Positions 1-24,268 of a stretch of 32,000 nt of DNA are shown in pieces. The notes beneath the pieces were generated by a model, which ran no database searches, was not told where the DNA came from, and worked only from the letters and a program-made list of their open reading frames with translations. Positions within the stretch are counted from its first letter, which is position 1; each line of letters begins with the position of its first letter. The stretch spans positions 140,729 to 172,728 of the forward strand of contig NC_009931.1 in assembly GCF_000018105.1 (NCBI RefSeq). The letters are read 5' to 3'. A program made the translations under genes and the position numbers. This DNA comes from Acaryochloris marina MBIC11017. Lineage in GTDB: Bacteria > Cyanobacteriota > Cyanobacteriia > Thermosynechococcales > Thermosynechococcaceae.

Positions 1-797
1 TCGTAGTCATGAATACGGCTACATACAACCATCTCGGTACGACCATGAGCTTGAAGGAATTGATTTAAAGCATGTACACAGTCATTCCGATGCTTGGCCT
101 CAACTTCATCCAGGCCATCCAGTAATAGGATTAATTGTTCTTTTACGATCCAAGACTTCCCCAATGACTTAGAAACAGTATATTTATCAAAAAGTTCCTC
201 TACTAACCACTCCTCAATGGATTTTCGTTGTCTAGACCAAGACGAGAGATTGAGCACCACTGGCAAAGGCTGATTTAGATCCGCTTCTGTTCGAGAAATT
301 AGACTTTCCGCTAATTTCAGTAGGGATATTGTCTTGCCCGCACCTGGCTCTCCCAGAATCAGTAGTGTCCGTCCAGCACCGATATCCTCAAATATATGTG
401 TGGCTGATGTGCCTTCTGGAAAAGCTTGCTTAGATTCAGGAGGGAATTCCTCGACACCTTCTAGTGGAGTATAAACATAGTTGTTTCTCTCTTCCAACCC
501 TAATTCAATCAACACTTGGCTATGCAGCGACTTCGCTAAGACTCCATCAATCCAGAATTGTTGAACTTTACTGAGTAGAACCTTGCGCCATCTATGCTCA
601 TCCCGGCTTAAAGGTTTTGCTGTGTCCAAAGGAGCTTGAGGAACCTTAACAGTACTAAATACATTGACAACCTCAGCATTTTGAATCTGAGTTACCTCCA
701 AGTCTCTCCCAGCAACGCCACCAATCTGGACGTCTTTGAGAACTCCACCAGAGAAATTTATACTCTGCTTTGATGGTTATTTAGACTGTTCACTCAT
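1..797 (-). CDS. NACHT-type STAND NTPase, N-terminal ~265 codons (gene continues beyond window start). It carries an in-frame TAA at codon 7, so it may be a pseudogene or use another start.
   Basis: The minus frame is open from 776 to 1. Walker A GEPGAGKT lies at 330-353 and Walker B LLLDGLDE at 105-128. ATG at 797-795 gives MSEQSK, then TAA at 779-777, then PSKQSINFSGGVLKDVQIGGVAGRDLEVTQIQ in the same frame. Confidence 0.75.
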
Positions 798-810
798 AGC
801 AGGGCTAGCC

Positions 811-1245
811 CTATAGCAGGAAGCCTGATGCAACTCCTAGCCAGGGAGTGACTTTTTCCACGATTGGTTTGATCTTTTTCCAAAGATTGGACCCTGCTGC
901 TACAGTCTCACCTGCTTCTTTGAGAACAGTAGTAGCCTTTTTAAGGCTTTTGGCTGCGTAGTCTTTGTCAGGTTCCTCAGCTTGAACTTCTTCCTTAGCT
1001 GATTCCAGGTGTCGAAGTGCTTTGCTGGCTTGTTCTTTTGGTAGTTCTGTACTCTTTAATAAAGCTTCCAGTTGGGTGATGAGGTCAACGACATCAGCTT
1101 GCGTTAGTTGAACTTCCGTTCCATCTGTCCCAATCTGTTGGGTCTGGGTCACCGTCTGATCGCCTCCAGCTATTCCACCTATCTGGACGTTGGAGTTTTG
1201 ACCACCGCTGATACTGATAGATTGGGAAGGCTTTTCTTCTGACAT
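811..1245 (-). CDS. Small protein (144 aa) with an N-terminal G/Q/N-rich beta-type motif, a helical middle and a hydrophobic C-terminal tail
   Basis: Complete ORF. Its stop is 13 nt upstream of the NACHT ATG. Its N-terminus (MSEEKPSQSISISGGQNSNVQIGGIAGGDQTVTQTQ) parallels the NACHT N-terminus. The C-terminus is VTPWLGVASGFLL. Confidence 0.65.
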   Translation of the reverse strand: MSEEKPSQSISISGGQNSNVQIGGIAGGDQTVTQTQQIGTDGTEVQLTQADVVDLITQLEALLKSTELPKEQASKALRHLESAKEEVQAEEPDKDYAAKSLKKATTVLKEAGETVAAGSNLWKKIKPIVEKVTPWLGVASGFLL

Positions 1246-1400
1246 AGCTTTAGTAGCAATGTAATTTAGTACTTTGCTAAGTATCAGTCCAGCTACTGGA
1301 TATTATGCTTTTCTTTAATAAAATTAGAGCTTTAATAATTAGAGAGTCAAAGTTCTTCACTCTTCATCTGAAAAAAAGCTCAAATTTTTTTCTGTGAACC

Positions 1401-4400
1401 TCACCGACGAGGAGATCGCCGTTGATGCTGTTGCTGCTCCTGGGTAATCTCATTCGCCAACTGCCCCAGATCCTCAAATTTGGCTTGCACCTCTGGGTTG
1501 TCAGACATCCGTAAGATCTGGCCCACCTTGACTTCCAGAATCACCTGACCCGTGTGCTTATCCGTGATGCTGGTATAGCCTCTGCCTGACCTGAGCCGCC
1601 AGTTGTCCCCTTCAGAAACGTAGTCGCCCCCTTGAGCCTCTTCTTGGCCGTAAGCGTGAGTAATCACTCTCACCGCAGCACAGGTTTGACTTGCGAGGCT
1701 GTTCCGTTGATTCTCAACCTCCTGATCTATTGGCTGAGTTGTTTTCTGGAATTCAGAAAGCGTCTGAGCCTGGGCCGTCACATGCAGGAGATGGCCTGCT
1801 CGATACCTCAGCAAAACTCGATTTGACTCTTTCTCCCTAATCATCGTGGTTAGTGGCCCGTGGGTCATAACCCAGGATGGGGTGAAGTAAACCCTGACTC
1901 GTCCATGCTGAGAGCCATGTTTTTGAGCCATCGCTTGGACAATAGGCACCATTGCCATACCAACCTCGGTCTTATGCTTTTGAAGCTCAAGCGCTTTCTC
2001 CATTAGGTATTCGCGCTCATAGATGTGCTTAGATCCAGCCTCAATAAACCGATACCCATCTTCAAGTTCTCCTCGACGGCTAGCCTCCATGAACACCTCT
2101 AGATCCATCCGCTCTGGGGCAAGATCCCCATCTCGACGCTGAACGAACTCCACCAGCTTGCGATAACGGTATTGATAATGTTTGAGGGCAATTTCTTCAA
2201 ACGGTCTGGTCCTTGAAATCGCCAGCTCTAATTGCTTCGGACCCGCCCCCACAATCAGATCATCAACGCCTTTATGTTGGTTATCCCATTTAGAAGCGGA
2301 TACCGAACAGCCTTCTTTGACCAACAGTTCACCCGCTCTCACTAAATCCTGACGGACATTCACGATGGTTAAAGGCTTAGTTTCTTGGTCATATAGGAAA
2401 TTGAAGTGACGACCGGGAACAGCGAAGACAGCCAAACCAGGATGGAGTTGTCTTATAGGAAGTTTTTTCTTATTGTCATCATTGGCCCGGTATCCACCAT
2501 TCACACCCGGCAGACCAATCGTGACATGGCCTTGAGAGTTCACCGCTAGTGTCTTCTTGCCACCCTCCGTAATATTGATGGGAATCTGGGGATTGTCCTT
2601 GACCACTGACCAAAAATGCTTCCCTGGCCTGGGTGTGATGCCGTACTGGTCATAGATCGTTTGGGCTAACCACTCAGGGACATGAGTTAAGAAAATCTCT
2701 CGGCTGACATCCGCTGGATGCTCATACTTTTGCGGTCTGTTCCTGCGGTAATCCATGCGAGGATGATCGGGTTTGAGGCTTCCCCAAAGGGATTCCGTGG
2801 GTTCTGGGTCATCCAATGAACTAGCGAGAACCCCCGCTTTAATCCAGAACCCCCCATCAGGAACATCCCTTAGCTTGGCAAACTCCTCAGAAATCTCTTT
2901 AACGACAACCTGCCCTGCGCCCATATCCTCAATCTTCGTGGACAACAACCGTTCCAAGATTTCTTGTCCCGCGATGGTTTCACAGTTCAACTCAGCGAGA
3001 TCTGGGTGAATACCACTGCCTGCTAGCAGCTCCTGCCAATGCCCCTCAGCAATGGGGAAGGATGCCTCCATGAGTTTTTTGGGGTTTGTTTCTGGAGTCC
3101 AGAACACCTTAATGAATTTGGGCTTAGGTGTGATGTTGATCCCCTTCCCTTGTAATCGTTCAGCTAGGGTCTTCAATTCCTCCGTGATCGGTCCCTCAGC
3201 CACGGCTCCAACCTCCCGCATGTCCCTCACCGTCTGCCCCAACTCCTGCATCTCTAGGGTTTGGCCAATCATCTGCTGGACTTGCTTCACGGCCTCGTCA
3301 ACCCCCTCTAAATGTTGGGTGATGGCAGCCTCAGCCCGCCGCTGGGCGATGGCCTCAGCAAGATTCTTCATCCCTTCATACTCGTAGATAGAGGGCTGTG
3401 ACTGTAGCTGTTCTATGGAAGTCGCAAGTTCAGCTAGGGAAGCTTCTAGTCCACTATTGAGTAAGGTTTTCTCTGCATTAATGTCGTGAATCGTCCCCGC
3501 TAGTTTAGCCATGCCCGCATAGTCCGCTTGATTCACCTGAGCCACTTGCTGAGTTAAGCGATCCAGTTTGTCCAGCAGTCCCAGTTGATCCAAAGCTTGC
3601 ATGTCTTGGTGGGTTTGCCATGTCTGAGCCAACTGACCCATCCCTTGATATTGATAGGGCTGAATGGGGAGTTGCTCTAGGGCTTCCGTTAACTGAGCAA
3701 GAGATTCGTATATCTCTCTCTGGGCCTGTACCGTCTGAATCTTCTCGGCTAAGGCACCCATAGACGGATAGATAGGAGAGTTCAGGCGTTCGACCTGTTG
3801 CTGGATCTGCTCCAGAACACCGCTCTCACTCAGCGCCTGGATGTTCTGATGTTGAGTGATGGTTTTGGCTAATCCAGCCATGCCTTGGTACTGGTGACCC
3901 TGGAGCTGCTGAATTGTCTCCGCTATCGGCGCAAGGGCATTCACGAGCTGCTGTTGGGATTGCCATTCTCGGATTGAGCGAACCAGCCTTTGCATTTGGG
4001 GGTAGAGAACGGGTTGAGCCTCTGCCCGTTCCAAGGCTGCGTCGAGGTGTTCTACGGCATCTGGTTGGTCGGCCTCCACCTCAGCGATTGCATCCGTTAG
4101 CCCTCGACTCGCCTGCCATTCCTGCAGGCCCGCATCCATCGCCCGGATCTGCTCTCGGTAGGTAACCTGTTCCACTGCCTCATCAATCTGGTCAAGGACG
4201 TACTGAATCTGCGTGAGATGTTCCGTGAGGTCTTGTTGTTCTTGCCGTTGGGTGATCGATGCCGCGAGGTTACCCATGTCATAGGTCGGGGGCTGGGGTT
4301 CCTCCATGCCTTCGGATAGCTGGTTAACTGCCTGATCCAATCCACTCGCTACGATCAGCTGAGCATTTTGATACGCGGTCCAGGATCGGGCTAATCCTGC

Positions 4401-7400
4401 GAGGGCGTCTCCGAGCTGGGAGCGCTCTTGCCGTTGGTGGGCATCACTGAAGTCAAGAGACCGCTGTTCTGGAGTTGTTGTTTGATGGACTTGATCTCCT
4501 CTGCCGCCGTCTCCACTCCCGCGTTCAGTTGCAGGTAAGTCATACCGGAGAAGTTCATCTTCTGGGTCAGATCCTCCATTGCTTTCGTTAATTTGGCGAT
4601 GGATTCCGCCATCTTCTCCGACTTCTGGGCGTCCAAGGCGTCTTGGAGCTGTTCGATGAAGTGCTGGAGTTCGCCCCTGACGAGATGGGGTAACGTCCCC
4701 AACTCCTGGTTGACGCGGAGGTTCAATGTATCGATTTTCTCCTCCACTCCTTGAACGGACTGACTGAGAATTTCCATCACCGTGGCTTGGGTTTGCTGTG
4801 CGTCCAGGATAGTCTTCTGGTGCTCCAGAATCGTGTCCAATTTGGCTTCCAGATTGCTCATGATAATCCTTTAATAATTCAGTGGCATTGTCTTGAGCGA
4901 TACTTTCACTGACTCGCTCATCTAGTTTTTTGAAACTCTGGCAATAGATAACAATCTCATGGGATTGCCGTGAAATCTTGACGTAGAAAGGCTCTTTAGA
5001 GGAGGTGGGATCATTGGTGCTGCTGATGACCACCCGCTTGCGACTTTGCCCTTGGGCACGGTGGGCCGTATGCACCAGCGCATAGTCCAGGCAAACGGGA
5101 TGATCGAGGGAGATAGTGCGGTGCTGGCCCTCCTCATCTATGACATGCAGGGTGCTGCCCTCGATGGCTACTACCTTGACCTCATCTCCGTTAGACCATT
5201 TCTGCTCCTTGTTGTTATGGGTCCAGCGCAGATCATCCCCCACGGCGACATTTAGATTTTGAACCTCATAGACCTCCTTATGCTTGTACTTGCTGGGATT
5301 GAAGTGATAGAGCCGCCCCCCTGAACTGCTAACAAGCAGCTCATCTCCTAACCTACGCTCCACCCGGTAAAGCTTGTCTTTCTGAAGGGGCGTACTGCGA
5401 TAGTTCTTCTTCTGAAGCTGGATATAATCCCCCACTTGGTAGAACTGAACCAGCCGTTTTTGCTCAATCGTCAGATGGCGACTGGCCAGTTGCTGGATAT
5501 GGTGATCCTCTTCCCCCAACGTCCCCTCTGCCTTTAGGCCCTGACGGAGTAAGGACATGATCGCTAGTCTTTCCTTGTTCGTGCCCGTGACGAGTAGCGT
5601 CTCGGCCCGTTCTTCTGGGCTGAGCTGAAGATAGTAGTCAGCAAAGGTTTGCTGTCGAATATCTTCGTCTTTGATTTCTTGGATATAGCCATGCTCTTTT
5701 AAGAGGCTGACGGCATTTAGCCCCTGACCTTTGGCAATGAGAGAGACGGCCCGCTTTTGCACGGTGTTGCGCTGGCGCACAATCTGGCTGATATGGAAGG
5801 TGGTTGCCCCCGCCCGAATCAGAGACCGCATGGGGGAACCCGCTGTAATACTGGGGTTTTGCTTGGTATCTCCCACAAATAGAACACGGGCATTCGCTGC
5901 CCTGGCCCGACCCAGCAATTCCAACATTTGCTGTGACCCAATCATCCCTGCCTCGTCTACAATCCACAGTTGATGGGGGGCTAGACTCGGCTTGCTCACT
6001 AAGAGCTTGGCGACGGTATTGGTTTTGATACCCAGTTCCTTGCCTAACACCTTAGAGGCTTTAGTCGTGGGAGCATACCCTTGGATATCGAGGTTGAGAT
6101 GAGTCAGAACCTGTTTCAATTGGCCCAACGTCCGGGTTTTCCCCACCCCCGCTAACCCATGCCAGAGGATAAATTGATCTGAGTGGGCCAAGGTTTTAGC
6201 CACTGCTTCTAGTTGCCCGACATTTAAACCGCTCTCTTTGAGCAGCTCCCTAACGCTGTACTCGGACATTAAGGGGGTTTGGGTTTGCCGTCCTAAGTCC
6301 CAGCTCTGATGAATGGCTGCTTCTCGCTCCAATGCCGCTACGGTGGTGAATCGTTCCGTATTGTTCACCTGATCTCGCAGGGTCAGCAATTCCTCACAGG
6401 CTGACATGGCTTGGCTTATATCCTCGAAGCGGAACTGGCGGATATTGCCGAAAACAAACTGCTCAATCTGCTCACGGGTAAAGGTAATGGAGCGTTCACT
6501 AAGATGGTTGATGGCACTGTGCAACGCCGTCGTCACCTGATCCGGTCGATACTCAAATTGAGGACTGAGATCCGGTTGAGGCATCCGGTAGTCTAAGGTT
6601 TGGGCCGCTTGCTGCCAGACGGCTTGTAAATCTGTGAGCTTCTGGCCCGGTTCCTTGGCTTTACGGCTTTTAAGGCAAGCGGTTTGCTTGTTTGCGGTGG
6701 TTGCTTCTAAACCATCTTTTTCGAGCTGTTTAAAGATCTGCTGAGAGCGCTTGGAGAAGGTTTCAACCTGCTCACGAGTAATTCCCTCAATCTCAAACGC
6801 ATCCTTCGTGGCATAGATCTTGTATCCCAAGTTCTGAATATTCTCAGCCAGGTATTGCCGATAGATTTGCCCCAAGCATTCCTGCATATACATCAGGTCA
6901 TTCTTACGGCTGCGCCAGGTGCCGTCTGGCATCTGGGTCGTATTCATCACTAGGGCATGGGTATGCACCTGTGGATCATTGGCCCTGGAGGTGTGGTGGT
7001 TAATCAGGGCAATCACCAGATTCTTCGTATTGAGGGTATGGCGAACCCCCCCGATCATCACCCGTGTTTGTCCATATCGCTCTTGGACGATATCCAGGGT
7101 GCGCTTGACGGCTTGCAGGTGGGCATCAAATAGGCGATAGTCACAGCCAATATGCAGGACCATTGAGGCACTTTTAGGCATGGAAAAAGTGAAGTCATCC
7201 CCCACCCGTTCCTTGTGCTTTTCGTTCTTGGGAAAACCCCTCAGCCTCTCCCCTTCCAGGTTGTAGCCATAGAAAACTTTTTTAAAGTCAGCCCGGTGGA
7301 CATTTCCCTGTAAACCGAGGGCATAAGCGCCATAGCCATACCATTGAGCGCGGACGAGCTTTCGTAGAGCGGCTGCTTTGGATTCAGCCTCACTGACCGT

Positions 7401-7529
7401 TTTCCCCTTCCCCTTCTTCTGTACCGACTTGGAAACATCAGGGCTGTAGTAATCCACCAGCCCCTCATCCTGGAGGTAATAGTCTTCTTTTTCTTTGCAG
7501 CCCGTCTGCACGGGCACAATCTTCAGCAT
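1401..7529 (-). CDS. Conjugative MOBF (TrwC/TraI-type) relaxase and RecD-like helicase, fused to a helical repeat region and a C-terminal DUF3854/Toprim-like domain (2042 aa)
   Basis: N-terminal YY pairs are present. The 3-His relaxase motif HHTSRANDPQVHTHALV lies at 6957-6998. Helicase Walker A GLAGVGKT lies at 6135-6158 and Walker B WIVDEAGM near 5945-5968. The Toprim-like motif ITEGGKKT lies at 2550-2573, followed by YDQE and KGVDDLIV. Confidence 0.9.
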   Translation of the reverse strand: MLKIVPVQTGCKEKEDYYLQDEGLVDYYSPDVSKSVQKKGKGKTVSEAESKAAALRKLVRAQWYGYGAYALGLQGNVHRADFKKVFYGYNLEGERLRGFPKNEKHKERVGDDFTFSMPKSASMVLHIGCDYRLFDAHLQAVKRTLDIVQERYGQTRVMIGGVRHTLNTKNLVIALINHHTSRANDPQVHTHALVMNTTQMPDGTWRSRKNDLMYMQECLGQIYRQYLAENIQNLGYKIYATKDAFEIEGITREQVETFSKRSQQIFKQLEKDGLEATTANKQTACLKSRKAKEPGQKLTDLQAVWQQAAQTLDYRMPQPDLSPQFEYRPDQVTTALHSAINHLSERSITFTREQIEQFVFGNIRQFRFEDISQAMSACEELLTLRDQVNNTERFTTVAALEREAAIHQSWDLGRQTQTPLMSEYSVRELLKESGLNVGQLEAVAKTLAHSDQFILWHGLAGVGKTRTLGQLKQVLTHLNLDIQGYAPTTKASKVLGKELGIKTNTVAKLLVSKPSLAPHQLWIVDEAGMIGSQQMLELLGRARAANARVLFVGDTKQNPSITAGSPMRSLIRAGATTFHISQIVRQRNTVQKRAVSLIAKGQGLNAVSLLKEHGYIQEIKDEDIRQQTFADYYLQLSPEERAETLLVTGTNKERLAIMSLLRQGLKAEGTLGEEDHHIQQLASRHLTIEQKRLVQFYQVGDYIQLQKKNYRSTPLQKDKLYRVERRLGDELLVSSSGGRLYHFNPSKYKHKEVYEVQNLNVAVGDDLRWTHNNKEQKWSNGDEVKVVAIEGSTLHVIDEEGQHRTISLDHPVCLDYALVHTAHRAQGQSRKRVVISSTNDPTSSKEPFYVKISRQSHEIVIYCQSFKKLDERVSESIAQDNATELLKDYHEQSGSQIGHDSGAPEDYPGRTANPSHGDGNSQSVRSRSGGENRYIEPPRQPGVGDVTPSRQGRTPALHRTAPRRLGRPEVGEDGGIHRQINESNGGSDPEDELLRYDLPATERGSGDGGRGDQVHQTTTPEQRSLDFSDAHQRQERSQLGDALAGLARSWTAYQNAQLIVASGLDQAVNQLSEGMEEPQPPTYDMGNLAASITQRQEQQDLTEHLTQIQYVLDQIDEAVEQVTYREQIRAMDAGLQEWQASRGLTDAIAEVEADQPDAVEHLDAALERAEAQPVLYPQMQRLVRSIREWQSQQQLVNALAPIAETIQQLQGHQYQGMAGLAKTITQHQNIQALSESGVLEQIQQQVERLNSPIYPSMGALAEKIQTVQAQREIYESLAQLTEALEQLPIQPYQYQGMGQLAQTWQTHQDMQALDQLGLLDKLDRLTQQVAQVNQADYAGMAKLAGTIHDINAEKTLLNSGLEASLAELATSIEQLQSQPSIYEYEGMKNLAEAIAQRRAEAAITQHLEGVDEAVKQVQQMIGQTLEMQELGQTVRDMREVGAVAEGPITEELKTLAERLQGKGINITPKPKFIKVFWTPETNPKKLMEASFPIAEGHWQELLAGSGIHPDLAELNCETIAGQEILERLLSTKIEDMGAGQVVVKEISEEFAKLRDVPDGGFWIKAGVLASSLDDPEPTESLWGSLKPDHPRMDYRRNRPQKYEHPADVSREIFLTHVPEWLAQTIYDQYGITPRPGKHFWSVVKDNPQIPINITEGGKKTLAVNSQGHVTIGLPGVNGGYRANDDNKKKLPIRQLHPGLAVFAVPGRHFNFLYDQETKPLTIVNVRQDLVRAGELLVKEGCSVSASKWDNQHKGVDDLIVGAGPKQLELAISRTRPFEEIALKHYQYRYRKLVEFVQRRDGDLAPERMDLEVFMEASRRGELEDGYRFIEAGSKHIYEREYLMEKALELQKHKTEVGMAMVPIVQAMAQKHGSQHGRVRVYFTPSWVMTHGPLTTMIREKESNRVLLRYRAGHLLHVTAQAQTLSEFQKTTQPIDQEVENQRNSLASQTCAAVRVITHAYGQEEAQGGDYVSEGDNWRLRSGRGYTSITDKHTGQVILEVKVGQILRMSDNPEVQAKFEDLGQLANEITQEQQQHQRRSPRR
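3150..4412 (-). repeat. About 10 degenerate 38-48 aa helical repeats (Y-x-G-M-x-x-L-A-x-x-I/W...) inside the large ORF
   Basis: Anchors recur: LAGLARSW, YDMGNLAAS, RAMDAGLQEW, YPQMQRLVRS, YQGMAGLAKT, YPSMGALAEK, YQGMGQLAQT, YAGMAKLAGT, YEGMKNLAEA, LEMQELGQT. They fall at residues ~1043, 1085, 1131, 1179, 1217, 1257, 1297, 1340, 1387 and 1427. Confidence 0.6.
4391..4861 (-). CDS. Embedded 156-codon ORF in the +1 frame of the relaxase ORF; predicted coiled-coil protein
   Basis: The ATG is preceded by AAGGA at 7 nt (TTAAAGGATTATCATG). The helical sequence is free of low complexity, with G/C/A-ending codons like the rest of the gene. Over the same bases, frame 0 reads as R/G/P/S-rich text. Confidence 0.4.
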   Translation of the reverse strand: MSNLEAKLDTILEHQKTILDAQQTQATVMEILSQSVQGVEEKIDTLNLRVNQELGTLPHLVRGELQHFIEQLQDALDAQKSEKMAESIAKLTKAMEDLTQKMNFSGMTYLQLNAGVETAAEEIKSIKQQLQNSGLLTSVMPTNGKSAPSSETPSQD

Positions 7530-9721: not shown

Positions 9722-10109
9722 CCGATTTGATAGACGGCTGCGTGTCCGTGCGGATAAAGGCAGTATTGAGCAGGCCATTGTGGAGGAAATTGAAGATCCC
9801 TGTACGCCCCCTGGAAGGGTGGGTGAAACGATTCTGCGAATGGGCCAAGCCTTCTTTGGTCATCGTGCGGCCCGTCGAATTCATCGCTCCGAACTAGAGG
9901 TAAAAAGTGCGGCGAGGGACTCAATTCGGCTGCTGCGAGAGCAGATTACCTATATTGCCCTCGACAGTGGCTTGAAAGATGAGCTGCCGCTGTTATTGGG
10001 CTTTCCCCAGTTTTCGATGAATGGTGTTTCCACCGAGCAAGGGGTAGCCCCCGTTGAGGAGTCTACCTCTGACATCCCTGATTTAAGTGAAGCATTTAAG
10101 GATAACTAG
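9711..10109 (+). CDS. parR: Small RHH-like DNA-binding protein, ParR-like adaptor candidate
   Basis: A TTG start overlaps the parM stop, and GGAGGG lies 8 nt upstream. The N-terminus RRLRVRADKGSIEQAIVEEIE fits a strand-helix RHH pattern, and the tail is acidic. Confidence 0.45.
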   Translation: MPDNRFDRRLRVRADKGSIEQAIVEEIEDPCTPPGRVGETILRMGQAFFGHRAARRIHRSELEVKSAARDSIRLLREQITYIALDSGLKDELPLLLGFPQFSMNGVSTEQGVAPVEESTSDIPDLSEAFKDN

Positions 10110-10111
10110 TC

Positions 10112-10738
10112 ATGCCCCAAACGAAGAATCAACTGATTGAGCAGGTTGCCAAGCCCAATGAGGTCAACGACGAGCAAGCGAACCAACTGATTGAGCTGCT
10201 GCAGATGCAGGAAGGTAAAGGAAAGAAATACCCAGATGAGCAAGTTCAGCTCTTTGAGCGGGCCTGCCAGTTGACCCGCAAAGGGCAACCCGTACCGGAT
10301 GCGGCTCAGATGGCATTGAATGAGGCTCAGCAAGAACCGCAGCCCCCAGCTCCCCAAGAACAAGCGGATGCACCCCCTAAACAGTCCACCTTGGATGGAG
10401 GGGTTCAAGACCTGGTTGAAATTGCTGAAACAGCGGGTGAAAGTACCGCCGAGCGATTAAGCCAACGCCCGGAGATGTTGTCGGATCAAACGATTCATGA
10501 ATTTGATAAGGCATTCTTTGTCTCGTTGGGGTATCACCTCCAACGTAAGCTCTCCGCAAGGGATCAGAGTCCCACTCCGATAGATGTGAAAGTGGAGCCT
10601 GCGGGACTAGGAATTTTGAAGGGGGTTCAGGAACGCTTGCAGGCGAAAGAAGAAGCTGAGCGCAAGGTGTTAGTCGCAGCAACACAGACGACGGATCAAC
10701 CTACTGAACCTGCCGAGGTTGTTAGTGAGCAGCAATAG
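10112..10738 (+). CDS. Hypothetical protein (208 aa), Q/E/P-rich
   Basis: An ATG with AAGGA upstream starts 2 nt after the previous stop, in the same operon. Confidence 0.55.
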   Translation: MPQTKNQLIEQVAKPNEVNDEQANQLIELLQMQEGKGKKYPDEQVQLFERACQLTRKGQPVPDAAQMALNEAQQEPQPPAPQEQADAPPKQSTLDGGVQDLVEIAETAGESTAERLSQRPEMLSDQTIHEFDKAFFVSLGYHLQRKLSARDQSPTPIDVKVEPAGLGILKGVQERLQAKEEAERKVLVAATQTTDQPTEPAEVVSEQQ

Positions 10739-10760
10739 CCTAAAGCAATCCCCCCAGCTC

Positions 10761-11288
10761 ATGTCCAGTGATGAAATGGAAGTGGTGAGCCGCGAGGTAT
10801 ATGACGTTGCCTCCGCTGATGCTCAACGGCTGATTGAAGCAATCCATAAGCACCGGGACATCAATCATCAGTCCGTCTTGGAGGCTTACAATCTGGTGTT
10901 TACCAGGGAGCTGAATCGGTTGCTGCAATCTCAGAAGGTTTTGGGTGCGGTAGCGATTGATAAAGTCTCGCCTGATCGGGTTAGACTCCCCGTAAATGGT
11001 GCACCGAATGAGGCTGATCTGATCCAGCTTGCCCAACGGCAATTGTTCTTAGTCCTGGTGGCCGTCGCCGCTCAGCATGAGAAGGTTCAAGAGATAAAGG
11101 AACGTCGGTGTGAACATGGCATCACGTTACTGAGAAATCTCACGGATTTACTTCGGGAACTATTCGGTTCTCTGCTGGGTTTGGTGTTGCTGCTGGCAAT
11201 GTTTTATGGGTTGGGGGTTGCGACTGGGGTAAACCTGCCGGGGGAGGTTATTTGCCGGGTGAGGATTGCTCAGTGTGCTGGGGAATAA
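10761..11288 (+). CDS. Hypothetical protein with a C-terminal TM segment
   Basis: This is the first ATG of the ORF; the track start at 10719 is TTG. The TM segment is LFGSLLGLVLLLAMFYGLGVATGV. Confidence 0.45.
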   Translation: MSSDEMEVVSREVYDVASADAQRLIEAIHKHRDINHQSVLEAYNLVFTRELNRLLQSQKVLGAVAIDKVSPDRVRLPVNGAPNEADLIQLAQRQLFLVLVAVAAQHEKVQEIKERRCEHGITLLRNLTDLLRELFGSLLGLVLLLAMFYGLGVATGVNLPGEVICRVRIAQCAGE

Positions 11289-11325
11289 TTCTCGAGACTC
11301 AATATGTGGATTTTGGAGGATTACT

Positions 11326-11508
11326 ATGCCAACTTTAAGAGCTGAGATAGCAGACATTATTACCCAGAATTCTGTGGAGAGAGCAGCGTTAGAAATACTA
11401 GCGTTGCTGGAGGAAAAAGGATTATCGCTCGTCGAAAATGGTTGGCTGGATGATGACACGATCTCTCAGCTTAATCACATTAGCGAAGAGAAGAATGATG
11501 AAAAGTAA
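11326..11508 (+). CDS. Hypothetical 60-aa acidic protein
   Basis: An internal ATG is preceded by GGAGG (TTTTGGAGGATTACTATG). Confidence 0.4.
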   Translation: MPTLRAEIADIITQNSVERAALEILALLEEKGLSLVENGWLDDDTISQLNHISEEKNDEK

Positions 11509-11860
11509 GTTTGCTCTGTTAATGGCGACAGCAATAGGCATTTTGGTTGTCCAGCCAGCAATGGCGGCTAACTTAAGCTCAAGCGAGATTGATCAAATGC
11601 TTCAAAATATCGCCATACCAATAGCGATGATCGCATCTTCTATTCTTGCGATCCATATATTCTCCTCCGGGCAACTCTCATATGTACAAATGAGGAAACA
11701 ACCAGGCAAAATCCGGGAGTTAATTGGGATTACCTGTATGTCATTCGCGCTTTGCTCACTCCCTTCTCTAGTCGTTGGGGAGTTTGGGAGCGGGAATGTA
11801 ACGCTGCTTTTGATCAATGGTGCGTTGATTGCTTTTGGTTTGATGATTCGTTCTCAGTAA
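11495..11860 (+). CDS. Secreted or membrane protein (121 aa) with a signal peptide and 2-3 TM helices; VirB2/TrbC-pilin-like topology, unproven
   Basis: MMKSKFALLMATAIGILVVQPAMA/AN fits an AxA cleavage site. Hydrophobic helices are separated by the basic loop MRKQPGKIRE. Confidence 0.5.
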   Translation: MMKSKFALLMATAIGILVVQPAMAANLSSSEIDQMLQNIAIPIAMIASSILAIHIFSSGQLSYVQMRKQPGKIRELIGITCMSFALCSLPSLVVGEFGSGNVTLLLINGALIAFGLMIRSQ

Positions 11861-11969
11861 AGGTAGAGAACGCATGAGGATATCGTTTGAAGGGCTACAA
11901 CCTGTTAGATACCTTCTGCGATCGCAACTCTGATACCAATCCACGGAGCTTAGACCATAGGAGAAAATC

Positions 11970-12569
11970 ATGGATTGTGCTGCTACGCGGACCCCCGAGG
12001 AAAGAGAATTCTTGCGTCTAAAAGGTCGAGATATGGCCTTTGGCTACATCCAGATGGCCCGCAGGTGTCCTCGCCCGGAGGAGATTGCTAATATGGCGCT
12101 TACCGATTGGGGCCAGGGCAATATCTTCAATGGTGTCGTGGATCAACTGGGCCTCATCTGGGAGGACGTTGACGGCAAGATTGTCTATCGTAAGAATCCC
12201 CAGCGAGAGCTGGAAAAAGAGCAAGCCCTTGACCGCTATCGATGCGCGTCAAAAGAGCCTCCTTTCAAACAGTATCCAGATTTGCAGGAGATGTCGCTTG
12301 ATGCACTACTGAGTGAATTGGAGAGCTGGCACAAAATCGGTGGATTTGATGAGCGGTATGACGAAGAGCGAGTAGAAGCCTTGGTCTGGATGTTGTGTTA
12401 TCGCATTGCCTCGGTCATGGCAGAAGATCATTGTATTTTGCTTGAGATGGCCGCATACGCGATTGGCTATGAGCATAAGACCCACCCCACGGCCATCCCT
12501 GAATGGAAGGATTGGGGCATGGCGATGTGTGATCGGGTTCTGGGGTCAATCTATACGAAACCCGATTGA
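11970..12569 (+). CDS. Hypothetical protein (199 aa)
   Basis: Complete ORF with backbone-like composition; last gene of the plus-strand operon. Confidence 0.55.
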   Translation: MDCAATRTPEEREFLRLKGRDMAFGYIQMARRCPRPEEIANMALTDWGQGNIFNGVVDQLGLIWEDVDGKIVYRKNPQRELEKEQALDRYRCASKEPPFKQYPDLQEMSLDALLSELESWHKIGGFDERYDEERVEALVWMLCYRIASVMAEDHCILLEMAAYAIGYEHKTHPTAIPEWKDWGMAMCDRVLGSIYTKPD

Positions 12570-12663
12570 GTTCCCAGACGTTCACATTCCAGGCGGTTTC
12601 TGTGTTGCCTAGCTGCGATGACCGAAGGTCGGTCTTCGACCATCGCGCATCCAATACCAACTC

Positions 12664-12844
12664 CCCAGACTTCCCACCAAACAGCAGTAAAAACGACCCC
12701 CCGCCACTTCTAGTCCAAGAGGTCGTTGAATCCTTTCTTTAATTATAATGAGGATCCCAAATGACGACGAACCCCTTTATCGGCTACTTCGAGCAAGTTT
12801 GGATTGACCACCAGACCAACTACGGCCAGCACGCTGATCCATGC
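12664..12844 (+). repeat. Copy A of a diverged 181-bp direct repeat
   Basis: It aligns base for base, at roughly 85 percent by eye, with 16617-16797. The aligned part includes a hairpin, an SD and the first 28 codons of a small ORF. Confidence 0.8.
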
Positions 12845-12868
12845 TTAGCGGTCTTGTGTATCACCTAG
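12761..12868 (+). pseudogene. Truncated paralogue (35 codons) of the 16714-16941 small ORF
   Basis: MTTNPFIGYFEQVWIDHQTNYGQHADPC matches MTTNPFSDYYEQAWIDHQTDYGQHPDPC. It then diverges and stops. Confidence 0.6.
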
Positions 12869-12884
12869 TCAGCCATAACTTACT

Positions 12885-13247
12885 TTAGAACTCAATTTCT
12901 TCCACCAAAAATGCACAAGACCTTGAGTGATCAATAAAGTTATTCTCATCCTCAATAAGCTTCGGTCCAAGTTCAGCCATCTCAGTCGAACCCATGGCTT
13001 CCATGAGATCATTCTCTGATTCAAACCACACCTCAGCAACACCATCAAACTCTTCTGCCATGCTTCTTGACTGTCTCATGCTTTCATTTAAAGGACTGGA
13101 GAGAGTATGCGACTGCACATATTTTTGAGTTCTCATCACAGCAGCATTCTTCATAAAGAATGGACCATGGCTATTCTGCCAATAATCCTGAAAAGCTTCT
13201 CTGGTGATATCAGCGCGACGATGAAGGCACATTATCAATTTGATCAT
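12885..13247 (-). CDS. EthD-domain protein
   Basis: MIKLIMCLHRRADITREAFQDYWQNSHGPF...FDGVAEVWFESENDL matches the EthD pattern. Confidence 0.65.
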   Translation of the reverse strand: MIKLIMCLHRRADITREAFQDYWQNSHGPFFMKNAAVMRTQKYVQSHTLSSPLNESMRQSRSMAEEFDGVAEVWFESENDLMEAMGSTEMAELGPKLIEDENNFIDHSRSCAFLVEEIEF

Positions 13248-13404
13248 GACACTCGAACTCTGATCGTTTTGGATTAAAAATGGCTAAAGACTAAGATTAC
13301 CAGGCGGGCGGACCAACGCGAGTGGCCTCTGAAGAACCAAAAGTCTCAACGAAGTGAACGACGAGGAAACACTGAAAACGTAGCCTGCTCCGTGCATTGA
13401 CTTG

Positions 13405-13977
13405 TTATGCGGCCTTTGTGGGCCACCGTGCAACCTCGTAGACGATTTCAGTTGGATTGAAATCATTCTCCAAGTAACCGCAATAGTGATCAATGATCAT
13501 TCCGAATTCAAGCTTACAGCTGACAATCGCGAGGAAATGCCCAGCGATGGGCCAGAGTTGAGGAACTGAGCGTTGGGCGGACGCGAAATCGACAACAAAG
13601 AGCGGGCATGTCGGAACCCAATATCCCTTACCGCCCTGTTGAATAGCGTTAGGCGGAGTGATCATCAAATGACAATCAGTGTTTGGATCAACGTTATGTA
13701 TTTGTTGAATGAGGTTCATCGCCTTATCGGGCCAAGCAACCTCGGTGTAGTGGTACTCGTTCGGACGCGTTTGAGATCCGGACCCGATGCCATCAGCAGT
13801 GGCGGGCAGAAAAGTGGAAATGATGTCGTGTGATTCAGGTGTGTAGACGCAGGGTGCGGAACTGAGCGCTTGCGACAGCGGTGGTGCGAGTGATTCGAGG
13901 AACGTGTTTCGATTGCGGCGTTGTTTGTTGGCCGACGCCTTGAGGAAGATCAATCGTTTGCGTTCATCGGAATCCAT
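13405..13977 (-). CDS. Hypothetical protein (190 aa)
   Basis: Complete ORF with no recognisable motif. Its GC looks higher than its flanks. Confidence 0.5.
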   Translation of the reverse strand: MDSDERKRLIFLKASANKQRRNRNTFLESLAPPLSQALSSAPCVYTPESHDIISTFLPATADGIGSGSQTRPNEYHYTEVAWPDKAMNLIQQIHNVDPNTDCHLMITPPNAIQQGGKGYWVPTCPLFVVDFASAQRSVPQLWPIAGHFLAIVSCKLEFGMIIDHYCGYLENDFNPTEIVYEVARWPTKAA

Positions 13978-14258
13978 CTTTCGCGTCGGGTTTGCTGCGT
14001 AACTATTGATTATATAAATATTGTCTGGTAACTCCAGCTTGAGGGCTATTATCTTCCAACTACTTTTTAACTCCGAGATAATGACATTATCAAGTCAGCA
14101 TCGGATAATTCCAACTCCAAGGGTGTTGTCCAGTAGTTCACCGTACTCACAAGGCCAAGTTTAAGAAGTTTAAGTCCTAATCTTCTTTCCTTTACCTTTT
14201 CGATTCAGATCACCAAATGAGGCCAATATCGCGAGGCTATAAAAATCAGTCACTAGAT

Positions 14259-14651
14259 GGGGTATTGTGGAACAATCCCCAAAAGTGACGATTCTGAAGA
14301 AGATCCGCCCAGAAAACATACAGCAAACCTTTTTGAGCAAGGGACATTAAGTTCAGCAGAACCGTTGCAAATACTAAGCTTAAAGTCTCTTCATATTAAT
14401 CAACCGTCTACTATATCAAGAGTTAGGAGACAGCTAAAATCACCCCAAAAACACTGTCTATTAAATCGTTAAATCCTACTTAGGAGGCAGTAGTGTCTAT
14501 TAATCGATTTAGGAGACATCATTAGAGGCGAAATCTGCACGAGCGTGGGTTTTCATACTGAGGGTTTTATACCTCGATAAGTTTTAAGACCGGATCAACA
14601 ACCCAATTCATTGCAGAATCGTCACTTTTGGGGGTTGTTCCACAATACCCC
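14259..14651. mobile_element. MITE-like element (393 bp) with 38-bp terminal inverted repeats
   Basis: GGGGTATTGTGGAACAATCCCCAAAAGTGACGATTCTG (14259-14296) matches the reverse complement of 14614-14651 at 37 of 38 positions. The interior is non-coding, with three TTAGGAGRCA repeats. Confidence 0.55.
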
Positions 14652-14809
14652 TTAGTGGGGTCTTTCAGAATCACTGCTTTTGGGGGTTGTTCCACTGATA
14701 CCTCTTCTAGGTTCGGAAAGTCTTGCCAACAATAGTGACAAAACCAACAGATTTGCCCATGACTAATGTGAGGGAGGAGTTCATGGGAGCAAATGGGACA
14801 GTCAAACAT
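14567..14809 (-). CDS. Small Cys-rich (zinc-ribbon-like) protein whose C-terminus is read from repeat sequence
   Basis: MFDCPICSHELLPHISHGQICWFCHYCW. The 3' third of the ORF lies inside the repeat copies at 14614-14702. Confidence 0.4.
   Translation of the reverse strand: MFDCPICSHELLPHISHGQICWFCHYCWQDFPNLEEVSVEQPPKAVILKDPTKGYCGTTPKSDDSAMNWVVDPVLKLIEV
14666..14702 (-). repeat. Third, degenerate copy of the MITE terminal repeat
   Basis: CAGAATCACTGCTTTTGGGGGTTGTTCCACTGATACC lies immediately after the right TIR, in the same orientation. Confidence 0.6.
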
Positions 14810-15057
14810 GGGGAAACCTCTGGCGTAGATTGACTCACCCAGAATCATAGGTAAGTGCCCTTCGTTACGAACGATAGTTGATAAAGTTGAGAATCCTATG
14901 AAGATTATTGAAAACAAACGATGTTGACTGGGCTAAAGGTTGCAGAGATAGGCATTGTTAAAGTTTTAGGATGCCAGCATAACACTTTTGCATGGACCAA
15001 AATCCCTGAAGTCCTTAAGCAGCAGTAGTGGTAGCCCTAGTCTCTTCAGTAGAAGTG

Positions 15058-15360
15058 TTACCCTGAAATCTTTCTAGAACTTGGACCATGCCGTTCTTTG
15101 TTTGGATCAGCACATTCAGAATCAATCTGAGCAGATGGTTTGACCGCTGCTGTCGGCACTGGATCATATCCGCCAGGGTGAAAGGGGTGGCAACGACAAA
15201 TTCGTTTCAACGCCAACCAGCTTCCCTTGAGGACTCCCCAAGTTGATATTGCTTCAATGGCGTAGGCCGAACAAGTCGGCTGAAAACGGCAAGACGGCAG
15301 AAATAAAGGCGAAATGAATCGCCGATAAAACTGAATTAATCCAATTAATAGCGTTTTCAT
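15058..15360 (-). CDS. yidD: Membrane protein insertion efficiency factor YidD
   Basis: [30 protein letters not shown]...[17 protein letters not shown] is the canonical YidD signature. A ~30-aa C-terminal extension follows. Confidence 0.85.
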
Positions 15361-15731
15361 ACAACTAACTCAAACAGGGATAGACCATAAGCCTATCTCT
15401 ATTTAACAATAGACATTATCGGAAATAAAATGAGTGAGAATAACTTCAAATGTCTATGTCGTAAGTCTTTGAGGTCGATTTTTCTCCAAAAATAAAACGC
15501 TTTCCCAGTAAGGTTTTCAGCTATTTCCGATAAGGTCTAATGAAAATATTGAATACGAAGTGGGTCTATGATCCATATTCTACCAACCTGGGGTCGGTTC
15601 AAATCAGGGTAACGCTTTCGCTTAAGGGGAAAAGGCTGCATCTGCTCCTGTACAAGGGCTTTAGGGGTTTTGATTATATAAAAGTGTTACCCTGACATCC
15701 TAGAACTTGAACCATGTCCGACAGTTAATTA

Positions 15732-17909: not shown

Positions 17910-18734
17910 CTAGGCGGTTCTTTCCATTGTCGTTTGGTCAGTGTTCTTCTGTAATTTCTTCATGATTTTGTTGAGAATCAGTCGAATCCCTTCACGGCTC
18001 AATCCAATCTGTTCACCGATTTCCCTCATCGACTTGGGCTGATCATCCTCCAGTCCAAACCTCTGACTGAGTACAAACTGCTCCCGTTTATCCAGATGAG
18101 CCATTACCTGAGAGAGTTGTTCGTCAAGTTGAAGTGATTCCAGGTAAAGAGTGGGTTGGTCTTCTCCAGCCATTAGATCAAGGAGAGTATCTTTTTGTTG
18201 GTGACCAACGGGTTGATCGAGGGACGATACTTTTTGAAATAGATGCAGTGTGCGACTAATGGTTTTCGGTTTGAGGTTGGTGGCCTTTGCTAATTCAGAC
18301 AGGGATGGTTCTCTGCCCAGCTGTTGATTGAGTTCTCTGAAGTGCTTTTTGATCTTGCTGATCATCTCCCATTGATACTGAGGAAGGTAGATGGGGCGTG
18401 ATTTAGCTCGAAGAGCAGCTGTAACCCCTTGCCGAATCCACCAATAGGCATAAGTGCTGAAACGACAACCTTGAGCGAGGTCGAATTTGTCTACTGCGTT
18501 ACTCAACCCAATACTGCCTTCTTGAATGAGGTCTTGCAGGGGTAATCCTCGATTCTGATGTTTCTTGGCAATGGAGACAACTAGACGCAGATTGCATTCA
18601 ATCAACCGTTGCTTGGCTCGGAGATTTCCTGCATTGACCTGTCTAGCGAGTAGTATTTCTTCTTCGTGGGAAAGGATGGGATATCGGGCTATTTCTTTGA
18701 GGTAGAAATGGAGACTGTCATGCTCAAGAGCCAT
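17910..18734 (-). CDS. Sigma-70 family RNA polymerase sigma factor with regions 2, 3 and 4
   Basis: The motifs are DLIQEGSIGLSNAVDKFD (region 2.2), FSTYAYWWIRQ (2.3/2.4) and SMREIGEQIGLSREGIRLI (4.2 HTH). I prefer the ATG at 18734 over the TTG at 18749. Confidence 0.85.
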   Translation of the reverse strand: MALEHDSLHFYLKEIARYPILSHEEEILLARQVNAGNLRAKQRLIECNLRLVVSIAKKHQNRGLPLQDLIQEGSIGLSNAVDKFDLAQGCRFSTYAYWWIRQGVTAALRAKSRPIYLPQYQWEMISKIKKHFRELNQQLGREPSLSELAKATNLKPKTISRTLHLFQKVSSLDQPVGHQQKDTLLDLMAGEDQPTLYLESLQLDEQLSQVMAHLDKREQFVLSQRFGLEDDQPKSMREIGEQIGLSREGIRLILNKIMKKLQKNTDQTTMERTA

Positions 18735-18821
18735 CACTGAACCTCGCAAACATCATTGGTAGAGAATTACCCCGAATTGCTTGGAATGGGAAGGATAATT
18801 GATGTTTCTTAAGGTTATGAG

Positions 18822-22811: not shown

Positions 22812-23474
22812 TTAGCTCAAGCTTTGGTGGACACTCATACTTTGCAAAATGCTGGCAATAGAATGAACATCGGTCAGCAAAACGCCCTGCACCTTAGTAT
22901 TCAAGATTGATTGATCAACTTGGCTTCCAACAAAACATAAAACTGGTTTTACCCAAGTAACTGCCCTACTTTTTTGGAGTTGTCCTGCTTGTCCTTTCAC
23001 CGCCTTGAGGATGCTTTTGCCTTTTGGGAAAGGGTAAATTTTTCTGCCGTATTGCTTGGATAATTCATGTCCTTTGAGAACGATGGTTCCTTTGCCTGAT
23101 TTAGTGTCAATACAGAAATGTTTCCCCGATGGCGAGATGGCGAGATGATCGATATTGCCCCATCTTGGGACAGGAATATCATGCTCGATGGTCCAGTTAT
23201 AGGCTCGAAGCTGATTCAGGGTTGCACCAACCGTCTCCTCTGCTCTGGCTCCTTGGGCTGCTTGATTGGCTCGCCTCCAGTAGTAGTTGCCAGCCAGTAT
23301 GCTAAGCCCACCAACGATGATCGAGAGTGCCCAAGCCTGTGAGTCAGACTTGAGAAGTGAACTGAGGATTGAGTGCCCTTGCACAACCACGAAGAGAGCT
23401 AACCCGAAAGATATGAAAGCTTTAAGCCTTCTTAGTCGAGCCATTCTTCTGGTTGATTGCCCTGGCTTAGTCAT
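22812..23474 (-). CDS. Membrane-anchored NERD (nuclease-related) domain protein
   Basis: Two N-terminal TM helices precede GARAEETVGATL...WGNIDHLAISPSGKHFCIDTKSGKG, a NERD-like core. Confidence 0.65.
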   Translation of the reverse strand: MTKPGQSTRRMARLRRLKAFISFGLALFVVVQGHSILSSLLKSDSQAWALSIIVGGLSILAGNYYWRRANQAAQGARAEETVGATLNQLRAYNWTIEHDIPVPRWGNIDHLAISPSGKHFCIDTKSGKGTIVLKGHELSKQYGRKIYPFPKGKSILKAVKGQAGQLQKSRAVTWVKPVLCFVGSQVDQSILNTKVQGVLLTDVHSIASILQSMSVHQSLS

Positions 23475-24007: not shown

Positions 24008-24268
24008 ACTAATATGTTTATATACCAAAGGGAAAGGAAAGCGCCCCGAAAGGCTTCCACCTCAACTAAATAAGTGAGTTCTACGAAGTGCTAGGTCACC
24101 CTGCTGAATACCGCAGACACGAAACCGGGGTAACGCTGGATTACGGTCTGAATGCCCTCGGTGGATGAATTAAAAGTTCAAAAACTATTCCCAAGTCAAA
24201 GCGGAAGAGAAACGGGTTGCAATCGACTCTCTTCCGCTGGCTTATTACAAACCAAGGAGATTCTAACA

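Follow-up and report, generated by a model that had tools for sequence, protein, structure and literature searches.

The window, as we call the whole stretch of DNA that was analysed, comprises 32,000 nucleotides (nt) of a plasmid of the cyanobacterium Acaryochloris marina MBIC11017 (contig NC_009931.1 of assembly GCF_000018105.1, positions 140,729 to 172,728, forward strand). At its left end lie two tandem minus-strand genes, one for a small protein of 144 amino acids and one for a NACHT nucleoside triphosphatase (NTPase). The small protein and the product of the intact NACHT gene begin with the same short motif rich in G, Q, N, V and I, the two genes are neighbours in most of the cyanobacterial loci that were counted, and the paired motifs co-vary. 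We read the pair as a two-gene conflict module of the NOD-like receptor (NLR) type, with a probably cross-β motif resembling the bacterial amyloid signalling sequences (BASS) and with the polarity of the partner opposite to that of HET-S, Bell and Bab. We judge this reading to be about as likely as not.

The gene pair

The small gene (811..1245, minus strand), located by a search for open reading frames (ORFs), encodes the motif, a linker and a module made of four helices and a tail. Its product starts with MSEEKPSQSISISGGQNSNVQIGGIAGGDQTVTQTQ and ends with VTPWLGVASGFLL. The TAG stop of the small gene occupies 813..811 and the next ATG, which is in the NACHT frame, occupies 797..795, leaving a spacer of 13 nt (798..810, minus strand). 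The tandem arrangement on the minus strand and the 13-nt gap, both proposed in the initial annotation, are thus borne out by the ORF coordinates and by the positions of stop and start.

The 5' part of the NACHT gene fills 1..797 (minus strand) and is cut at window position 1; its original ATG is at 795..797 and it matches the Pfam family NACHT (PF05729) with an expectation value (E) of 2e-9. A Walker A motif (P-loop), GEPGAGKT, is readable at 330..353 (minus strand), and its columns are invariant in an alignment of 45 sequences. The full NACHT gene, read in locus L024 (8449..10533), is intact and encodes 694 amino acids with a PF05729 E of 9e-11. PF05729 scores are 38–42 bits against a cut-off of 26.7.

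The shared motif

The motif spans residues 7–37 of the small protein (1135..1227, minus strand; SQSISISGGQNSNVQIGGIAGGDQTVTQTQQ), as located by BLASTP to the NACHT N-terminus, and residues 10–39 of the intact NACHT protein (681..770, minus strand), where the frame reads KQSINFSGGVLKDVQIGGVAGRDLEVTQIQ. Over the first 36–39 residues, the two N-termini share 23 of 39 positions as identities (E 2e-8, BLASTP with compositional adjustment), and the similarity runs back to the start codon (MSEE.KPSQS in one, MSEQSKQPSKQS in the other). A hidden Markov model (HMM) of the small-protein family matches the N-termini of downstream NACHT ORFs elsewhere with E between 1e-5 and 1e-9. The proposal that both genes begin with the same motif therefore holds as regards similarity; in the window itself, a stop at codon 7 of the NACHT frame precedes the motif, as described below.

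Across 225 members of the small-protein family, the motif consists of three short stretches of alternating hydrophobic residues, split by two conserved G-G pairs. The main-clade consensus is PSQSFSISGGQLSNVQIGGxAGRDLxVTQxQQ on the partner side and QxLNISDSVLExVQIGGIAGRDLNLTQIQG on the NACHT side. Residues Q, N, G, V and I make up 59% of the partner-side motif and 56% of the NACHT-side motif, compared with 23% of the helical part of the small protein; K, P and L make up 6%, 11% and 28%, respectively. Published BASS and fungal motifs are biased towards Q, N, G, V and I and against K, P and L (Dyrka et al. 2020, bioRxiv 10.1101/2020.01.06.895854).

In about 0.4 Mb of cyanobacterial loci, the motif was seen only on proteins that contain the module and on the N-termini of their partners, and the refuting case of a motif common in unrelated proteins did not arise there. 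A search of a set of 5.8 billion proteins with a profile of the motif alone returned six ORFs of 51–55 amino acids, which is uninformative about the motif outside proteins of the STAND class (signal transduction ATPases having numerous domains); one of the six lies on the contig of locus L009, where the NACHT gene is fragmented.

Conservation and co-variation of the pair

A protein identical to the small protein (P0001) is found in A. marina, and 78 close homologues of about 144 amino acids are all cyanobacterial. In 1.84 billion representative proteins, the family comprises 432 clusters at 50% identity, 270 of them with E ≤ 1e-10, and in the best 150 of the 432 clusters the match ends a few residues from the C-terminus of the protein. 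A genome scan with the single small protein returned no loci; an alignment-based scan did find loci. The loci retrieved were 22 from genomes, 25 from metagenomes and several more, of which 48 non-redundant ones were counted.

In about 44 of these 48 cyanobacterial loci, a motif-bearing STAND NTPase gene adjoins the module gene, so the association of the small-protein family with STAND NTPases, expected from the initial annotation, recurs elsewhere. The family HMM matches a second ORF on the same strand in 32 loci, over profile positions of approximately 3–38, and this ORF carries a P-loop wherever the sequence is long enough. Its start lies anywhere from 25 nt ahead of the module ORF's end to 331 nt beyond it. 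With offsets taken between stop-delimited reading frames, the two genes of other loci overlap by at most about 25 nt or are separated by at most about 17 nt, and this tight spacing suggests co-translation or an operon. In 11 more loci, a related but diverged motif was found by eye at the N-terminus of the downstream partner. The partner is convergent or 2 kb away in two loci, and four loci have none. Two tandem motif-bearing NACHT genes are present in several loci (L003, L004, L036 and L056).

Co-variation of the paired motifs, a further expectation, was borne out with alignment-free Smith–Waterman scores of raw 45-residue segments. Among 43 non-redundant pairs, cognate motifs score 75.1, whereas shuffling of the partners gives 61.3 ± 1.7 (z 8.2, p ≤ 2e-5). 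Because the compared segments are paralogous, the co-variation is not what shared ancestry alone predicts. The divergent loci illustrate the match between partner and NACHT/STAND protein: GQVGQAGGDLTQ with GQVGQAGRNLTQ in L048, NQFAQAGRDQ with NQVSQAARDS in L045, VQIG-IAGKNL with SQVG-VAGGNL in L046, SIAQAKGNI with PIGQAEGNV in L021, and GQIAQAVGN with GQIGQAVRD in L056.

Architecture of the small protein

The small protein was proposed to carry its motif at the N-terminus, followed by a helical segment and a hydrophobic tail, and this order is what we find. After the motif, a variable linker (1105..1134, minus strand; residues 38–47, IGTDGTEVQL) corresponds to poorly conserved alignment columns. 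The conserved helical domain (847..1104, minus strand) covers residues 48–133, and the hydrophobic C-terminal tail (814..846, minus strand) covers residues 134–144 of the 144, PWLGVASGFLL. In the AlphaFold2 (AF2) model, calculated from a 25-sequence alignment, residues 1–44 are unstructured with a predicted local distance difference test (pLDDT) score of about 41. Helices at 49–65, 70–88, 94–114 and 116–136 and a short terminal turn follow, with pLDDT of about 80.

The ratio of nonsynonymous to synonymous substitution rates (dN/dS) among four Acaryochloris paralogues is 0.05–0.16 for the motif and about 0.1 for the helical part. In every paralogue pair, dN/dS of the linker is above that of the flanking parts (0.17–3.2); its dN is 0.17 in the closest pair and about 0.4 in the other five of the six. 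Selection is purifying on the motif and the helical part and relaxed on the linker. The tail follows the pattern P-W-L-G-V-A-x-x-F-F, with W135 conserved in 94%, L136 in 80%, G137 in 88% and A139 in 83% of the 225 members; W-L-G-V-A lies 9–13 residues before the C-terminus in nearly all of them, whether standalone or fused.

No Pfam or NCBIfam family matches the small protein. Compared by fold with the PDB, the helical domain has no significant match; the best hits (E 0.45) are generic four-helix bundles, with MLKL at rank 20 and a probability of 0.10. A sequence search of the PDB with the small protein found nothing significant. The PADLOC candidate PDC-M14B aligns over positions 148–262 of 267 with residues 4–132 of the small protein (E 2e-11).

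Architecture of the NACHT protein

The intact NACHT protein consists of the motif, the NACHT domain and a hydrophobic, GL-rich C-terminal half. Pfam finds none of the repeat families WD40, TPR or LRR in the full protein, that is, none of the repeat sensors of a canonical NLR. By hydropathy, the NACHT partners contain 4–8 hydrophobic segments. For P0234, an intact paralogue from A. marina, the AF2 model (pLDDT 72.6, predicted template modelling score (pTM) 0.68) leaves residues 1–41 unstructured, with pLDDT of 28–48 over the motif. A search of the PDB with the NACHT sequence profile gave no match. By structure (Foldseek), the best matches of the P0234 model in the PDB are NLRP14, NOD2, NLRP3 and NLRC4 (E 1e-5 to 1e-4). 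The protein is a STAND-class NACHT NTPase with an NLR-like fold.

Six long helices, arranged as three hairpins, occupy residues 405–606 of the P0234 model, and a conserved terminal unit of about 45 residues containing GGGYIFIHRMLLEHFA follows. The best reading of this model is that the NACHT partner would be embedded in the membrane and would have no WD40 or TPR sensor. The element GGGYIFIHRMLLEHFA resembles F-x-H-x-x-x-Q-E-F-x-A-A, the winged-helix signature of NACHT proteins. If it is a winged helix, the hydrophobic hairpins would be inserted within the nucleotide-binding oligomerisation (NOD) module, and the protein would end with the winged helix and without a separate sensor.

The NACHT family gave 3,942 matches at E ≤ 1e-20. 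The present motif is found in 52 of the top 120 relatives, and most of the others have different short N-termini rich in G, N, Q, V and I. Among these 120 (P0232–P0351), the N-terminal slot holds at least three unrelated short motifs of this composition (type A, which is the present one, and types B and C). Type B reads ...LSIGGSVDNSPIVVGDRNTINQG... and type C reads ...IQQDVKGDRNQVIGQ..GG.VINQLTIHDR (also written ...GDRNQVIGQ..GG.VINQLTIHDR). Type C closely resembles a cyanobacterial sequence of the published BASS1 effector set (DGQGTWIQQSVTGDRNQVIGTMGG...). In one relative (P0333), a CHAT domain is fused directly at the N-terminus, in the place of the motif. The N-terminal slot thus behaves like the signalling or effector slot of fungal and bacterial NLRs, as it holds alternating motifs, a BASS1-like motif in type C and a directly fused CHAT domain.

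The nonsense allele of the window

In the window, the NACHT frame reads ATG-S-E-Q-S-K-TAA, followed by PSKQSINFSGG. The in-frame TAA at codon 7 (777..779, minus strand) is a C-to-T change of CAA (Gln), giving a Q7* nonsense allele. Codon 7 is CAA and the gene is intact in AP026077.1 (A. marina MBIC10699) and in one Logan assembly. The region of the window is 99.9% identical to the plasmid AP026077.1, which is typed as conjugative, and the TAA codon is the sole difference in 181 nt when the window is aligned with L023, L024 and L025. Because the TAA allele was found again in independent assemblies, and because the gene of the MBIC11017 plasmid is annotated at 662 amino acids, we take the stop to be a real polymorphism.

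No ATG, GTG or TTG lies between the TAA and the start of the motif in the NACHT frame. The first possible restart is a TTG at codon 33 (699..701, minus strand), inside the motif, so that most of the motif lies upstream of it. The 662-residue annotation starts at this TTG (P0232, beginning MEVTQIQNAE), and in L025 the gene call starts 96 nt after the ATG. With the stop ahead of the motif and the restart at the TTG, it is only from the intact allele that a NACHT protein starting with the motif can be made. As the frame reads, the receptor of the window would be either motif-less ("decapitated") or a pseudogene. At best, this strain would make a motif-less NACHT protein from the TTG, so that its pair is probably inactive or uncoupled.

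Other Acaryochloris copies vary in the same gene. On plasmid CP071722 (L051, 1099..3649 and 10001..15569), one NACHT copy is split by frameshifts into three ORFs and the other is interrupted by an insertion of the insertion sequence (IS) 21 type. The NACHT copies of MBIC10699 and L052 are intact.

Fusions and unusual loci

About one third of the best representatives of the small-protein family are longer, and the module is their C-terminal end. Pfam assigned pentapeptide repeats to 13, CHAT to 7, and TIR_2 and TIR to 4 and 2 of 51 longer proteins, with single cases of Roc-COR, AbiTii, DUF4062, TRADD-like_N and others. In the TIR and CHAT fusions, the motif is internal and still ahead of the helical domain. 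Fusions of the module to CHAT (L005 and L022) and to TIR (L009 and L042) adjoin motif-bearing STAND genes, as do the CHAT-like fusions of L048 and L050, identified from sequence only; L018 is an exception. In L018 and L048, the partner has the motif in two tandem copies. Divergent STAND partners such as that of L022 have nSTAND1 and WD40. The module protein of L022, the sole one whose STAND protein was identified as a soluble WD40-type, has no hydrophobic tail.

Some loci depart from the common layout. In L044 (4587..6929), the N-terminus of the STAND partner has tandem units of the motif core (GQAARDLTQNQGQ AGGDLAQ GQAARDLLQNQGQ), with the repeats on the receptor side instead of the partner side. 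The downstream motif carriers in L015 (2734..3612) and L021 (6398..7348) are about 290–310 residues long, lack a P-loop and have no Pfam, NCBIfam or PADLOC match. They look mostly helical, the end of the L021 protein is hydrophobic, and they constitute a third kind of motif carrier. The module protein P0154 of L055 (2065..2796) has an N-terminal transmembrane helix and a coiled coil before a diverged motif; its gene lies 3 nt after a STAND-like gene that ends in TPR and whose N-terminus is cut by the end of the contig.

Proposed mechanism and alternatives

In a conflict module of the kind proposed, a membrane-associated cue would turn the NACHT protein on, and its oligomerisation would gather the N-terminal motifs. 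Once gathered, the motifs would fold into a cross-β (amyloid-like) structure, by which the identical motif on the partner would be templated or recruited. The partner would be assembled at the membrane, where its four-helix domain would release or insert the C-terminal tail, the four-helix and tail part being the membrane-targeting or membrane-perturbing output. The cell would finally stop growing or die (abortive defence). Fused TIR or CHAT domains would, in other genomes, be brought together by the same assembly step as alternative outputs; these domains are typically activated by oligomerisation. The logic would be that of NWD2/HET-S, BASS/Bell and Agp/Bab with the polarity of the partner reversed. 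We infer the amyloid folding of the motif, the direction of signalling, the action of the tail on the membrane and the role in defence, and the small protein would be the effector. The module may also be an adaptor or a membrane anchor, since it is fused behind TIR and CHAT domains as well.

This reading draws on the shared motif, the conserved gene pair, the co-variation, the selective constraint, the composition bias, the tandem motif copies, the fusions, the alternating N-terminal motifs of the NACHT relatives, the hydrophobic segments of the NACHT partners, the fixed position of the tail and its absence in L022, and the module shared with PDC-M14B. We also count in its favour that the motif is disordered, without secondary structure, in the AF2 monomer models of both the small protein and P0234. 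Several observations weigh against it. No predictor gave β or amyloid structure for the motif. The tail, at 11 residues, is too short for a helix that spans a bilayer. Homology of the four-helix domain to HeLo, MLKL or Bell was considered and rejected, as the fold and sequence searches of the PDB had no significant match. The initial annotation had noted a resemblance to amyloid signalling motifs (ASMs); this stands for the BASS-like composition bias and for the BASS1-like sister motif, but not for the sequence itself, since neither QIGGI nor GIAGRDL occurs in the published BASS1–10 sets, to which the motif thus does not belong. Among 1,650 six-frame segments, the present motifs come first with a rough BASS1 HMM that draws on 22 published sequences, but only a 10-residue AGRDQxV core is aligned, with E of 0.0035–0.7, and a BASS2 HMM does not match the motif. 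Within the main clade, where the motif is near-invariant, HMM-aligned cognate pairs have an identity of 0.546 compared with 0.537 (p 0.06), and this weak cognate preference means that specificity is seen only between lineages. In three of five Acaryochloris NACHT copies, the NACHT gene is broken and the small gene is intact, which would also fit a function of the small protein that is independent of NACHT. Finally, PDC-M14A, the second protein of the PADLOC candidate PDC-M14, is not matched by any NACHT/STAND partner or neighbour, so the pair is not the two-protein PDC-M14 system.

The alternative that survives best, although we regard it as unlikely, is a non-amyloid homotypic adaptor: the motif would be a short β-strand docking element that forms a stoichiometric hetero-oligomer and recruits module proteins, with any fused TIR or CHAT domain, to a membrane receptor. 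Such an arrangement would follow the principle of the effector-associated domains (EADs), with one copy on the core NTPase and others on the effectors of adjacent genes, adjacent copies being more alike (PMC7159879). A near-invariant motif in the main clade is what a fixed interface would lead one to expect, and the lack of a full-length match to BASS families agrees with it. The EADs described, however, are small α or α+β domains and not unstructured G/Q/N-rich segments of 30 residues, no Pfam family matches the motif, and the composition, the pseudo-repeats on the partner side and the BASS1-like sister motifs point to the ASM class.

Less probable again is that the small protein regulates its neighbour as a cap, decoy or chaperone, with the six-helix region of the membrane NACHT protein being the toxic or executing part. 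The small protein would bind the N-terminal motif of the NACHT protein or, through a GxxxG-like tail, its membrane helices, and so hold it in check or tune its assembly. In favour of this, sensor repeats are not recognisable in the NACHT protein, whose hydrophobic region could serve as an effector; the small gene lies upstream in tight coupling, a gene order often seen in toxin–antitoxin pairs; and Acaryochloris has repeatedly inactivated NACHT but kept the small gene. It is, however, hard to reconcile a dedicated inhibitor of a membrane NACHT protein with the fusion of the module to TIR and CHAT effector domains and with the pairing of the motif with soluble STAND-WD40 proteins, and the CHAT domain at the position of the motif in the all-in-one relative marks that position as the output end. 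The suggestion that the small ORF is not a gene, being a remnant of a partial 5'-end duplication or of local gene conversion, would fit the similarity back to the start codon and the nonsense allele of the window, but it is extremely improbable and we reject it on conservation and dN/dS: length and end are conserved in a family of 432 clusters at 50% identity, dN/dS is about 0.1, the pair occurs across many cyanobacterial genera and the motifs co-vary between lineages.

The NLR-type conflict module can be placed in a wider picture, of which we are somewhat less confident than of the module itself. In this picture, membrane-embedded NLRs with hydrophobic hairpins in the NACHT module, placed before a winged-helix-like end, would be widespread in cyanobacteria and would use a new family of amyloid-type motifs together with an undescribed four-helix, tailed module that stands alone or carries TIR, CHAT or pentapeptide repeats. 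The whole would be an independent reinvention of the HET-S/Bell design with inverted polarity.

Surroundings of the pair

Directly upstream on the same strand (1401..7529, minus strand) is a gene for a relaxase-type protein of 2,042 amino acids with TrwC, helicase, TraI_hel_assoc_N and DUF3854 matches. Degenerate units of about 40 residues each ('Y.GM..LA..I...Q...') make up a long Q/E-rich region in the middle third of the protein. An ATG-initiated ORF of 156 amino acids (4391..4861, minus strand) lies within these repeats in another frame of the same strand; it is coiled-coil-like and may merely reflect the composition of the repeats. A scan of window positions 600–1600 for promoters and terminators found no minus-strand site. 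Likewise, a simple scan of the 155 nt of AT-rich sequence that separate the small gene from the relaxase stop (1246..1400) showed no promoter- or terminator-like site on the minus strand. The small gene and the NACHT gene may be read through from the relaxase transcript. On the sister plasmid, the NACHT pair is located between the relaxase gene and the gene of the type IV secretion system coupling protein.

Other cargo of the window (17910..18749, minus strand; 22812..23474, minus strand; 24152..31398, plus strand) consists of a complete sigma-70 factor gene, a gene with a NERD nuclease domain, a DUF932 ORF and transposases. The DUF932 ORF, matched only over profile positions 5–96 of 227, is probably truncated; a gene for an IS-type DDE transposase follows it immediately downstream. 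A Tn3-family transposase is truncated after about one third of its DDE domain.

Comparison with known systems

Published ASM screens start from the C-termini of effectors, and the NLR survey counts NACHT or NB-ARC proteins with WD or TPR repeats. The present family of 432 clusters would escape such screens because the position of the partner motif and the architecture of the NLR both differ. The existence of the family suggests that bacteria use motif-coupled NLR signalling more broadly than the BASS families catalogued so far would indicate. A NACHT protein that lacks repeat sensors would also bear on signal sensing by NLRs. As one strain has the nonsense allele and its sister strain the intact one, a natural control is available.

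The initial annotation described the layout of the partner as inverted and undescribed. The inversion stands: published ASM work places motifs at the N-termini of NLRs and, as had been stated, at the C-termini of effectors, and the hydrophobic helix of HeLo, Bell and Bab is N-terminal, so the orientation here is opposite to that of HET-S, Bell and Bab. The novelty is only partial, as the C-terminal part is already contained in the PADLOC candidate PDC-M14B (Payne et al. 2024, bioRxiv 10.1101/2024.01.29.577857). PDC-M14B shares the module and is a candidate defence gene from 'guilt by embedding'; unlike the small protein, it has about 267 amino acids with an extra N-terminal part.

With the EADs (Kaur, Burroughs, Iyer, Aravind 2020, PMC7159879), the present pair shares the principle of coupling: a small element is found on a core NTPase and on variable effectors, often encoded by adjacent genes, and the copies most alike are those next to each other. 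The effectors of EAD systems include caspase-like, TIR and pentapeptide-repeat proteins, and these systems are likewise enriched in cyanobacteria. EADs are small α or α+β domains, whereas the present motif is a segment of about 30 residues without predicted structure. No Pfam family, any EAD models in Pfam included, matches residues 1–45 of either protein (E ≤ 1 for the small protein and the NACHT protein of the window, E ≤ 0.01 for the full NACHT protein), and by this search neither is one of EAD1–11.

The Bab/Agp pair of Escherichia coli (BASS11; Ibarlosa et al. 2024, bioRxiv 10.1101/2024.11.07.622273) also combines a small helical protein (109–144 amino acids) with an adjacent large sensor and a glycine-punctuated motif. 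Amyloid-based abortive infection has been shown experimentally for Bab/Agp, and BASS11 is also linked to TIR, CHAT and NACHT (bioRxiv 10.1101/2024.11.07.622273). Bab differs in having an N-terminal hydrophobic helix and a C-terminal motif.

In the fungal NWD2/HET-S pair of Podospora anserina, the N-terminal motif of the NLR templates the motif of a neighbouring helical, membrane-targeting partner, as proposed here, and the two motif repeats of HET-s recall the tandem copies on some module partners. In HET-S, an N-terminal HeLo domain that bears a membrane helix at its N-terminus is combined with a prion domain at the C-terminus, and the protein shows neither sequence similarity nor significant fold similarity to the small protein. 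The present pair, unlike the fungal one, is bacterial and plasmid-borne, and its receptor would be membrane-embedded. When the C-terminal prion domain of HET-S folds, the N-terminal membrane helix is expelled; a motif at the front and a hydrophobic segment at the end raise the question of whether the same switch works in mirror image.

Also among the closest known systems are the Bell/NLR BASS pairs (Dyrka et al. 2020, bioRxiv 10.1101/2020.01.06.895854). In those pairs, the motif ends the partner, the hydrophobic segment of the partner is N-terminal and the NLR carries WD40 or TPR repeats where the present one has membrane helices. As in BASS-type systems, a biased motif is common to the STAND N-terminus and the adjacent product, with similarity between cognate copies; the motif of the partner is not C-terminal here. 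In both cases, the genes are adjacent, often overlapping and found in cyanobacteria, and a Q/N/G/V/I-rich motif of about 25–30 residues is present at the N-terminus of a NACHT/STAND protein and on a neighbouring small helical protein. The likeness extends to pseudo-repeats on the partner side (BASS1 and BASS6), to motifs attached to TIR and CHAT domains and to all-in-one relatives.

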